Source of the DNA: Fibrobacter sp. | GTDB taxonomy: Bacteria > Fibrobacterota > Fibrobacteria > Fibrobacterales > Fibrobacteraceae | Direction of reading: 5' to 3' | Assembly: GCA_017626945.1 (NCBI GenBank) | Contig: JAGAHT010000024.1 | Coordinates: 1,120 to 65,119, forward strand | Length of the DNA: 64,000 nucleotides | Shown: piece by piece, positions 43,906 through 45,356 of the stretch | Layout of the letters: every line of letters starts with the position of its first letter | Position numbering within the stretch: position 1 is the stretch's first letter | Notes under the pieces: model-generated | What the model was told of the DNA's origin: nothing | Database searches by the model: none | The model's input: only the letters and a program-made list of their open reading frames with translations | Translations under genes and position numbers: made by a program

Positions 43906-43997
43906 ACCTCAATGATAGAAAAATCACCCAAAACATGGCAAGCAAACACCCCTACCCCTTTACAAACGCTCTATTTTTTCTAAATTAAGGCAACAAC

Positions 43998-44070
43998 GCG
44001 GGAGTAGCTCAGTTGGTAGAGCGCGACCTTCCCAAGGTCGATGTCGAGGGTTCGAAACCCTTTTCCCGCT
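43998..44070 (+). tRNA. tRNA-Gly(CCC)
   Basis: GCGGGAG TA GCTC AGTTGGTA GAGC G CGACC TTCCCAA GGTCG ATGTC GAGGG TTCGAAA CCCTT TTCCCGC T cloverleaf. Confidence 0.95.
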
Positions 44071-44132
44071 CTAAAATGGAAAAGACACCTTCACGGTGTC
44101 TTTTTCATTTTACAAGTGAATAAGTTGGGTTG

Positions 44133-44594
44133 AGAACACTCGAAGAGGGTTCGACAAAATCCGGTTATGCACGAAGTGCGAAAAACGGATTTTGAGCTTG
44201 ACACGAGCGCAGCGAGTGCAAGCCCGAAGGGTTTAATCGCAACCTTGCGTCAGCAAGGAATATTGCGATTAAACAAACCCTTTTCCCGCTCTAAAGCAGA
44301 AAACCACCCTATCGGGTGGTTTTTGCTTTATTCGCGGCAAGGTTTCAAGAACCCTCGAAGAGGGTTCGACTAAATTCTTTTGTGGGCGCAAGCCCGTGAA
44401 AAGAATTTAGGACTTACTGCGCAAGCAGTAAGCCCGAAGGGCGGCAAGCCAGCCGCGTAAGCGGAGACTGGCGAAGCTGTCAAACCCTTTCCCAACTCAT
44501 TAACAAGTGTATCGAGCATTGAGCCCGTAGGGTTAACTCACAACCTTGCGTTAGCAAGGAATATTGTGAGTTAACAAACCCTTTTGACGTCTAA
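44133..44594 (+). repeat. Three tRNA-linked multi-hairpin cassettes framed by T-arm-like sequences
   Basis: GAGGGTTCGAC (44145, 44360), CCCG(A/T)AGGG hairpins, AAACCCTTT right ends (44275, 44482, 44576); 21-bp repeat of the tRNA 3' end at 44055 and 44275. Confidence 0.75.
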
Positions 44595-44600
44595 GGCAAC

Positions 44601-45356
44601 TTATTTCGTAAATTCCGGCAACAATTCGTAGAACTTTTTCGTAAACATCCCGCGAAAACGCTCGTACGGCAAAATCAGCACAACATTACCGCATGCGCCA
44701 CAATTAACCGCATAGGTATGCCACTGAAAACCAAGTCCCTTTGAAGTCGGGTAGATCCAGTCAAAATCAGAAAAGCCCTGTTTTACTCCGCAATCATGCT
44801 GATTGCTCGGTTCCGTCCGTGCCACTTCCCTTACATAGCGAGTCATCACACTTTTAGGCAACGCAAAGATATCATAATACAGCAAAGGATACGACTCCCC
44901 CTTCAACAAAACATATGTCGGCGAGTTATACCAGCCATGAGCAGCGACCAACGCATATCCCGTAGCTTGGACTTCGTAAGTCATCGTACTCTTCGTCTGG
45001 GACCTATAGACAACCCAAGTCGAGTCATAGCTATTCCCTAACACAGAAGGATCATCCACCTCGAAAGCAGCCTTCAAAGATTCGTCATTCTCCGCAACAC
45101 ATTCAAGGCAGGTCTTCGCAGGATTTTTCCCATCCCTAATATGACCGTTACAGGACACCACCGAATCCATCCAGTCACGAATCGGTTCCACGACTGAAGA
45201 CGGGCCACCAACGGGATAATCAATCGCCAGGTATGCCAAATGATGATTACAGCGAGCGCCCGCAGAAAAATGTTTAATAGCTACGGAATCACGCAAGCCA
45301 TCGGCATAAGCGGAAACAACCAAAATAACTAATACAACAAAAGAAAACTTTTTCAC
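44601..45356 (-). CDS. Secreted Cys-rich hypothetical protein
   Basis: Signal peptide MKKFSFVVLVILVVSAYA; multiple Cys. Confidence 0.7.
   Translation of the reverse strand: MKKFSFVVLVILVVSAYADGLRDSVAIKHFSAGARCNHHLAYLAIDYPVGGPSSVVEPIRDWMDSVVSCNGHIRDGKNPAKTCLECVAENDESLKAAFEVDDPSVLGNSYDSTWVVYRSQTKSTMTYEVQATGYALVAAHGWYNSPTYVLLKGESYPLLYYDIFALPKSVMTRYVREVARTEPSNQHDCGVKQGFSDFDWIYPTSKGLGFQWHTYAVNCGACGNVVLILPYERFRGMFTKKFYELLPEFTK

Follow-up and report, generated by a model that had tools for sequence, protein, structure and literature searches.

Structured tandem units behind the tRNA-Gly(CCC) gene of Fibrobacter resemble the tRNA-linked repeats of Escherichia coli

The tRNA-linked repeats (TLRs) were described first in Escherichia coli (Egan & Landy 1978; Rudd 1999; Stenum et al. 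2021, PMC8144298), where 22 of them, RtT being one, are spread over ten loci in operons for tRNA or rRNA, each locus having between one and five (PMC8144298). The set comprises RtT/RttR of the tyrT-tyrV operon (Rfam RF00391), the TLRs of the arg operon and the rrA, rrB and rrF elements 3' of 5S rRNA, and its hallmark is that the last 18-19 bp of a unit are those of the 3' end of the upstream gene (PMC8144298). At rrnB, rrnA and rrnD the units are located between the terminators T1 and T2; transcription reaches them by reading through T1, and the RNAs, which are processed, bind Hfq and CsrA in vitro (PMC8144298). Here we describe a tandem array of hairpin modules behind a tRNA-Gly gene in a stretch of 64,000 nucleotides of Fibrobacter sp. 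DNA (contig JAGAHT010000024.1, positions 1,120 to 65,119; hereafter the window). From the sequence comparisons given below we conclude that the modules are probably divergent TLRs, a similarity with which common descent, transfer and convergence are all compatible.

The array and its probable kinship with tRNA-linked repeats

The window holds a single tRNA-Gly(CCC) gene, on which ARAGORN and Rfam agree (64.2 bits). A preliminary description of this DNA, made from its letters, had seen three modules following the tRNA, and two complete units and a partial one indeed lie behind the gene and its terminator, the first starting 70 nt past the tRNA. The features are listed here; the bit scores of the modules are those of a covariance model, R1, that was built from 37 Fibrobacter modules with a hand-set structure.

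43959..43986, + strand: sigma-70-like promoter candidate of the tRNA gene, TTTACA-16-TAAATT, a consensus match only and of putative function
43998..44071, + strand: tRNA-Gly(CCC), T-arm GAGGG-UUCGAAA-CCCUU, CCA not encoded
44072..44112, + strand: terminator T1, inverted arms of 18 nt with the inner stem GACACC/GGTGTC, then TTTTTCATTTT (T-run)
44134..44152, + strand: 5' hairpin P0, GAACACTC-GAA-GAGGGTTC
44142..44284, + strand: module 1, TLR-like unit, 124 bits
44143-44151/44276-44284, + strand: closing helix P1 of module 1, 9 bp, AAGAGGGUU/AACCCUUUU
44151-44155, + strand: T-loop-like UUCGA of module 1
44155-44194, + strand: hairpin A of module 1
44196-44223, + strand: hairpin B of module 1, with tandem G.A, CGAG..CGAG
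44223-44231, + strand: centre of module 1, CCCGAAGGG
44231-44274, + strand: hairpin C of module 1
44275..44295, + strand: copy of the tRNA 3' end, exact over the 21 bp of 44055-44075
44299..44324, + strand: terminator T2, 11-bp stem and T-run
44357..44491, + strand: module 2, 119 bits
44370-44410, 44413-44432, 44433-44441 and 44442-44479, + strand: hairpin A, hairpin B, centre and hairpin C of module 2
44502..44585, + strand: module 3, a partial 3' half-unit, 25.4 bits

Module 1 starts with CGAAGAGGGTTCGAC and ends with CAAACCCTTTT. Its closing helix is a replica of the T-stem of the tRNA, G.U pair included, and the T-loop pentanucleotide UUCGA is retained, around 119 nt being inserted at the place of T-loop positions 59-60. 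The earlier suggestion that modules 1 and 2 are T-arms opened at the T-loop, with hairpins between the halves, thus holds: GAGGGTTCGA is found at 44146-44155 and 44361-44370 and AAACCCTTT at 44275-44283 and 44482-44490, leaving gaps of 119 and 111 nt, respectively. In the folds of both modules a closing helix of 9 bp encloses three hairpins, and both are more stable than their dinucleotide shuffles (-61.5 kcal/mol and z = -6.7 for module 1; z = -6.3 for module 2). Module 2 has the architecture of module 1, but the hairpin sequences are unrelated; all four of its loops are of the GNRA/GNA kind. The 5' hairpin P0 constitutes an alternative pairing to the closing helix, since both use the same GAGGGTT. 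It is kept as GAACCC..GGGTTC at other loci, and its counterpart in the E. coli TLRs is GAGAAGCUUCGACCAAGGUUCGAC.

The 21-bp copy at the end of module 1, which spans the T-loop end, the 3' strands of the T-stem and acceptor stem, the discriminator and 4 nt of trailer, and the new terminator behind it had both been recognized in the preliminary description. In module 2 the copy is degenerate (44482-44498, AAACCCTTTCCCAACTC, 70%) and lacks a terminator after it, and in module 3 it is partial. In module 3, what remains of the spacer past the terminator (TTAACAAGTGTAT) is followed by hairpin B, of which only the 3' end is present, the centre CCCGTAGGG, hairpin C (44532-44575) and CAAACCCTTTT. Two close relatives, L014 and L024, have one module each, which module 3 matches. 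Compared with the 3' half of module 1, the segment 44521-44585 shows 88% identity and eight differences, six of which constitute three compensatory pairs (44234/44271, T-A to A-T; 44236/44269, A-T to C-G; 44239/44266, G-C to A-T) and two of which are located in loops; the three compensated positions that had been reported for the final hairpins could therefore all be placed. No further copy of the module was found in the window.

Although R1 contains Fibrobacter modules exclusively, it matched, with filters off, all eight E. coli TLR units on which it was tried, over their full length and on the correct strand, with scores between 14.5 and 22.4 bits: 14.5-20 for four tyrT/V units, 14.8-20.8 for three arg units (argVYZQ) and 22.4 for the rrnB unit. 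The best unrelated match reached 12.5 bits, on both strands of the window taken together (128 kb). The blocks that Fibrobacter has in common with the tyrT/V, argVYZQ and rrnB TLRs are GAGAA-..CGA..-GGUUCGAC and CGAGCGC(C)AGCGAG, and in a MAFFT alignment of the two complete window modules with three E. coli units CCCG.AGGG is invariant. The tyrV unit reads GGGGAAGGAUGAGAAGCUUCGACCAAGGUUCGAC-UCGAGCGCCAGCGAGAG-AGCGUUGCCGCAGGCAACGA-CCCGAAGGG-CGAAGCGCGCAGCGCUGAG-UAAUCCUUCCCCCACCACCA, in other words an opened T-arm whose halves match tRNA-Tyr, a centre identical to that of Fibrobacter, a last hairpin and the tRNA 3' end; its hairpin CGAGCGC(C)AGCGAG is found also in hairpin B of Fibrobacter. In the rrnB unit, hairpin A (GACAAAUCCGCC...GCGGAUUUGAA, to be compared with GACAAAAUCCGG...CGGAUUUUGA in module 1) is followed by hairpin B, GCCCGGAGGG, hairpin C and a copy of the 5S 3' end. 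Position and strand, the 3'-end copy (module 1), the presence of one to three units and the cross-detection by R1 all agree with TLR membership.

The Rfam model of RtT (RF00391) yielded a weak match on module 2 (14.6 bits), the only non-trivial match in Rfam. At its gathering threshold the model finds only the tyrT/V repeats and misses the argVYZQ (L089) and rrnB (L091) TLRs, so that failing this threshold says little on wider TLR membership; the curated family under-covers the class, being limited to the tyrT type. In the literature on non-coding RNAs (ncRNAs) of Fibrobacter only Fibro-purF was found, and a mobilome preprint that mentions rttR holds nothing decisive.

Conservation of the fold, the strand and the locus

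The preliminary description had proposed that a covariance model be built, and the model bears out its reading of the compensatory changes. R1 re-found 61 modules, 48 of them distinct, and within the latter 90.5% of the cells were paired, versus 78.0% after shuffling and 35-50% when the partners were slid by one to three columns. Double-sided changes were observed in 27 of the 50 pairs (mean in shuffles 20.2) and in 335 cells (109 +- 11 in shuffles), values that none of 500 shuffles attained in either case. Most of the covariation falls within hairpins A, B and C. As the same architecture recurs in around 50 independent loci with significant covariation, the modules go beyond chance. A plain MAFFT alignment, in which hairpins A and C were out of register, let RNAalifold recover no more than P1, hairpin B and the centre, and was replaced by the alignment guided by the covariance model. 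Folds of single sequences, a support that is independent of the alignment, all yielded the same junction of A, B, centre and C.

The fold is strand-asymmetric. In 41 of 44 distinct modules the tRNA strand folds more stably than its complement (mean -62.1 versus -57.4 kcal/mol; Wilcoxon 1.7e-8), and the loops on the tRNA strand are GAA, GUA, GCAA, GUAA and GCA. Conserved details include a U.G pair that closes the tip of hairpin A and the tandem G.A pairs of hairpin B (CGAG/CGAG). The fold of the + strand is under selection. K-turns, hammerheads and other ribozyme motifs were found neither by eye nor with Rfam. The idea that the centre, read as AAGCCC-GAA-GGGUU, pairs with both halves of the junction and constitutes a multi-state switch or a Holliday-like site was dropped, because the E. 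coli TLRs keep CCCGAAGGG despite having AAGG/CCUU as T-stems.

For retrieval, a pattern with two anchors (GAAGAGGGTTCG N100-130 CAAACCCTT) was scanned against 185,579 species genomes and against metagenomes. Among the species genomes it was found at 21 places, 14 of which belong to Fibrobacter or to metagenome-assembled genomes of Fibrobacterales; the other seven are scattered and as numerous as chance predicts. At each of the 14 Fibrobacter loci the module is on the strand of tRNA-Gly(CCC) and starts 65-75 nt 3' of it, so the linkage to tRNA 3' ends that had been put forward as a check extends across the genus. The metagenomes provided 46 loci, of which around 38 are genuine, and these are tRNA-linked wherever the contig is long enough. 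Each matched genome has a single syntenic locus, always at tRNA-Gly(CCC), with one to three units per locus. Two scans of viral contigs gave chance matches only, of which one falls in a coding region and the other at a phage tRNA-Met. Dispersed copies were found neither in the window nor in 500 kb of loci, the modules being confined to tRNA-Gly(CCC); as the pattern with which the collections were scanned is tied to the Gly T-arm, analogous units at other stable-RNA genes of Fibrobacter would be missed.

The gene order around the array is mostly kept (NUDIX gene, lipoprotein gene, tRNA, array, HAD gene), and the neighbours encountered across the loci are speA-like, NUDIX, lipoprotein, HAD and AstE genes. 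The co-occurring transposase or integrase that had been suggested as a further check is absent: no such reading frame was found within the 4-8 kb flanks of the 14 genomes or in the neighbourhood within the window. Between the array and the HAD gene the window has an open reading frame of 251 aa (44601-45356, - strand) with a weak match to DUF3298 and only nine homologues among 5.8 billion proteins. It is a lineage-specific insertion beside the repeats, as the HAD gene directly adjoins the array in most other Fibrobacter species. Orthologous loci fetched via this protein included near-identical strains with the same array, and its homologues, although few, gave the informative loci L011-L014. 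In the Fibrobacter succinogenes-like genomes L026 and L037 the intergenic region 3' of the array is filled with G+C-rich palindromic repeats (e.g. GGGGGAGGTCTCCCCC and GTCATCCCCGCGCAGGCGGGGATC), a repeat family distinct from the modules.

Transcription, turnover and competing explanations

A terminator follows the tRNA in 49 of 49 distinct arrays. The intact tRNA 3' tail, AAACCCTTTTCCCGCTC, is carried by 21 of 51 modules, 18 of which have a new terminator next. The promoter candidate in front of the tRNA gene is presumed to be the source of any read-through transcript. Metatranscriptome contigs join the 3' part of the tRNA, T1 and the module (unstranded and devoid of end information). In run X46 the depth was 21 over the contigs with tRNA, T1 and module, 60-108 over the upstream gene and 0-4.5 downstream, and this non-uniformity looks like RNA rather than carry-over of DNA. 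For the read-through transcript from the tRNA to T2 (43998-44330) the predicted minimum free energy is -155 kcal/mol (z = -8.4), and in the predicted fold the 5' acceptor strand of the tRNA pairs with the tail of module 1, the T-arm of the tRNA pairing with the spacer GGGUUGAGAACACUCGA. One may speculate from this model that the module would stand in for the T-arm and give rise to a giant tRNA-Gly-like molecule. In the F. succinogenes-like clade (L023, L026, L027 and L037) the spacer 5' of the module contains G(U/C)(A/U/G)GGGAGAAAAAGG, which in L037 (GCGGGAG) is the sequence of the 5' acceptor strand of the tRNA. The spacer is complementary to the tail CCCUUUUCCCGCUC, and the acceptor/T 'minihelix' that the two could form would compete with P1.

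The units turn over. Among close relatives, a locus that shares the downstream gene with the window has a single unit identical to module 1 (L030), another with a neighbouring protein of 95% identity has a single unit with the hairpin C of module 3 (L014), and in a third, where this identity is 81%, the unit is internally deleted (L011). The types of hairpins A, B and C assort semi-independently between species, and closely related strains differ in their hairpin sets. Metagenome and metatranscriptome contigs contain a variant that lacks exactly 44055-44274 (a skip of 220 bp) and has 21 nt in common at the joint, which is the copy of the tRNA 3' end at 44275-44295. Similarly, skips of 225 and 449 bp were observed for an F. 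succinogenes-like locus with three units (L079), each with an overlap of 21 nt at the joint. The shared 21 nt imply that units are gained and lost between direct repeats, and the presence and absence of units is exactly what recombination between direct repeats of at least 21 bp would give. The comparison of filled and empty sites, proposed in the preliminary description with a view to mobile elements, thus has a divided outcome, in that skips with precise junctions do exist but are equally expected from homologous recombination.

Several arrays have been altered in other ways. In L068 (4521-6215; also in L063 and L064) an AT-rich insert of 1.6 kb separates a complete module from a 3' half-module adjoining the HAD gene and made up of GAGTGCAAGCCCGCAGGG, hairpin C and CAAACCCTTTT. 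The insert has a gene for a protein of 530 aa with repeated zinc ribbons and a weak match to REase_MTES_1575, and its position within the array makes the latter also a landing site for foreign DNA. In L025 a direct repeat of around 85 bp flanks the single module (at ~60-145 and 350-435 past the tRNA start, oriented); it contains the tRNA 3' end, the terminator and the spacer up to GAGAACCC, and looks like a duplication or a Campbell-type junction, far longer than the 21-bp repeat. The second unit of L027 (739-981) has around 100 nt inserted past hairpin B (GTGTTAACCGAGGGCGATTGCGAGAGCAAAGTCTATGCC...), and because of this interruption the covariance model splits it into two weak matches.

We consider it probable, with some reserve, that the modules are structured RNAs of the TLR type that are produced by read-through, processed at a tRNA 3' end, active in trans and shuffled as units by recombination. 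Each unit would form a four-way junction whose closing helix reproduces the T-stem of the adjacent tRNA and retains UUCGA, with hairpin A, hairpin B, the conserved GCCCGNAGGG centre and hairpin C inside, intact units continuing into the copied tRNA 3' end and a new intrinsic terminator. The units may be transcribed from the tRNA promoter via read-through of the preceding terminator, for which the E. coli rrnB TLR sets the precedent. By analogy, the copied 3' end would allow the machinery of tRNA 3' maturation to set the 3' end of the RNA; given that CCA is not encoded, such processing would mean an endonucleolytic cut and CCA addition. The mature RNA would act in trans and, in analogy with RrA/B/F, may bind protein. 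A protein-binding or sponge role tied to stable-RNA transcription is the only precedent for a function and could apply here by that analogy. Finally, units would be added, removed and shuffled where the recurring segments (tRNA 3' end, terminator and junction) recombine with one another, by homologous or unequal exchange.

A number of points weigh against this interpretation. The function of the TLRs is unknown even in E. coli (PMC8144298). The score of RF00391 is below the gathering score (14.6 versus 45 bits), the model found nothing in 16 other loci, and the E-values of R1 are calibrated only roughly. The tails of 30 of the 51 modules are degenerate, and mimicry for 3' processing therefore cannot be universal. 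The 30-nt spacer between T1 and module 1 has no promoter-like site and T1 appears to be strong, so that expression depends on read-through. A discrete transcript is presumptive, the Logan contigs being directionless and possibly including DNA. The closing helix is invariant across the modules and lacks support from covariation because the retrieval pattern fixed its sequence, while the alignment, being fitted to the covariance model, leans to structure, and the shuffle control ignores phylogeny.

Alternatively, the modules could act only in cis, as a tail of the tRNA unit that serves as a back-up terminator, as an insulator or as a platform on which RNases enter and degrade read-through transcripts, without any trans-acting RNA. 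This would agree with their position, always between terminators or behind them where the tRNA unit ends and often facing a convergent gene, with their want of a promoter of their own and with the predicted re-pairing of the 5' acceptor strand of the tRNA with the module tail. Yet a terminator or insulator does not need a conserved four-way junction of 130 nt with an invariant GCCCGNAGGG centre and a U.G closing pair, nor tandem G.A pairs that are kept via compensatory change throughout the genus and are common to E. coli; for such a task the structure is over-engineered, and we regard this explanation as unlikely. That the modules are neutral debris, left by unequal crossing-over as incomplete, decaying copies of the tRNA gene with functionless hairpins, is very improbable. 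Their tRNA-derived parts (both T-arm halves and the 3' end, and GCGGGAG upstream in L037), the unstable copy number and the many degenerate tails and some degenerate or truncated units are what such decay would leave, but the double-sided changes lie far above those in shuffles, the architecture stays while the sequence turns over, modules are present at every Fibrobacter locus examined, and the core is common to E. coli TLRs beside unrelated stable RNAs (Tyr, Arg and 5S).

The preliminary description itself had offered two readings, non-autonomous mini-elements that target tRNAs (mobilized by HUH/Y1 enzymes or an integrase) and structured ncRNAs. The latter has stood, given the covariation, the strand-asymmetric fold with GNRA/GNA loops, the bounding terminators and the kinship to the E. 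coli TLR/RtT RNAs. The former, by which the modules would be DNA recombination cassettes, attC/attP-like folded sites or mini-elements inserted into the T-loop of tRNA-Gly by an integrase or HUH enzyme in trans, each bringing its own tRNA 3' end and terminator, has not, and we deem it improbable. It would account for the breakpoint in the T-loop, the 21-bp direct repeat that restores the tRNA as in the case of tRNA-targeting integrases, the exact presence and absence forms of the units, the different hairpin sets of closely related strains and the foreign genes at the array (the 1.6-kb insert of L068 and the lineage-specific 251-aa gene). However, the flanks of the 14 genomes and the window neighbourhood lack a recombinase, every matched genome has one syntenic locus, dispersed or viral copies were not found in the scans, the units have no cargo, and homologous recombination between repeats of at least 21 bp accounts for the polymorphism. 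Moreover, cassettes leave the strand-asymmetric, covarying fold with its GNRA loops unexplained, and the related units of E. coli yield RNAs by the processing of stable-RNA transcripts. A model with an integrase, attP and circular 220-bp units was likewise given low weight.

Significance and comparison with known systems

The TLRs have been without a known function since 1978 and were documented before only in E. coli and its relatives. The Fibrobacter feature is real and conserved, and constitutes a phylogenetically distant new member of this known, functionally unexplained class. That the design recurs in Fibrobacterota and is kept by compensatory evolution, with an opened T-arm, a copied 3' end, the core of A, B, GCCCGNAGGG and C and a position between dual terminators, speaks for a selected fold and against recombination debris. 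It is conceivable, though we put this forward tentatively, that TLRs are no enterobacterial curiosity but structured RNAs of an ancient and widespread class, which accompany the transcription units of tRNAs and rRNAs. A design in which the closing helix mimics the 3' end or T-arm of the neighbour, and a hairpin-GCCCGNAGGG-hairpin core binds a conserved factor or senses stable-RNA synthesis, is a similarly tentative extension of this thought. The roughly 48 diverse Fibrobacter sequences provide, together with those of E. coli, comparative data for a general TLR model and for bacteria-wide searches. For annotators, the locus makes clear that repeated tRNA 3' ends beside a tRNA gene are not necessarily att sites of an integrase.

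Among the other systems with which the array can be compared, the attL/attR remnants of tRNA-targeting tyrosine-integrase elements likewise show a direct repeat of the tRNA 3' end that starts in the T-loop, a tRNA restored at the left junction and a variable islet downstream. In contrast, the Fibrobacter unit of around 220 bp has no integrase or cargo, its interior is conserved by covariation, and the locus is single and vertically inherited across the genus. The attC sites and gene cassettes of integrons resemble it in that structure is kept while sequence varies, in imperfect inverted core sites, in the tandem arrangement and in strand-specific folding, whereas the Fibrobacter array lacks IntI, attI and coding cargo, has loops of the GNRA type, and is tied to a tRNA and bounded by terminators. 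With the small RNAs of tRNA spacers and trailers (e.g. 3'ETS-leuZ) and with tRNA minihelices or tRNA-like RNAs (YrlA, the tRNA-like domain, TLD, of tmRNA) the modules would share an origin of the RNA from a tRNA transcription unit and a mimic of the T-arm or acceptor that could recruit tRNA-processing enzymes. The Fibrobacter insertion, however, is within the T-loop (after A58) and does not replace the anticodon arm, and the modules have no evident base-pairing seed. At the gathering threshold and at E<=10, Rfam 15 gave no match to a tRNA-like RNA (tRNA, tmRNA, YrlA) or self-cleaving ribozyme besides the tRNA itself.

The E. coli TLRs differ from the modules in their host, Gammaproteobacteria versus Fibrobacterota, and in the tRNA, which here is Gly-CCC with CCA not encoded. 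RtT has an upstream GGGGAAGG/CCUUCCCC helix, whereas the closing helix of Fibrobacter consists mainly of the two T-stem halves (P1); the minihelix of spacer and tail in the F. succinogenes-like clade resembles the outer helix of RtT. In Fibrobacter hairpin A is long, with a conserved tip closed by U.G, the units are separated by full terminators, unlike those of tyrT, and many are without the acceptor part of the tail. Nevertheless, in both cases one to five tandem units lie directly 3' of a stable-RNA gene on the same strand, between two terminators in the case of rrnB as well, they end in a repeat of the final ~18-21 nt of the gene before them, starting within the T-loop, the T-arm-like parts fit the cognate tRNA (AAGG/CCUU for Tyr, GAGGG/CCCUU for Gly), and hairpins A and B, GCCCG(N)AGGG, hairpin C and the 3'-end copy succeed one another in this order.

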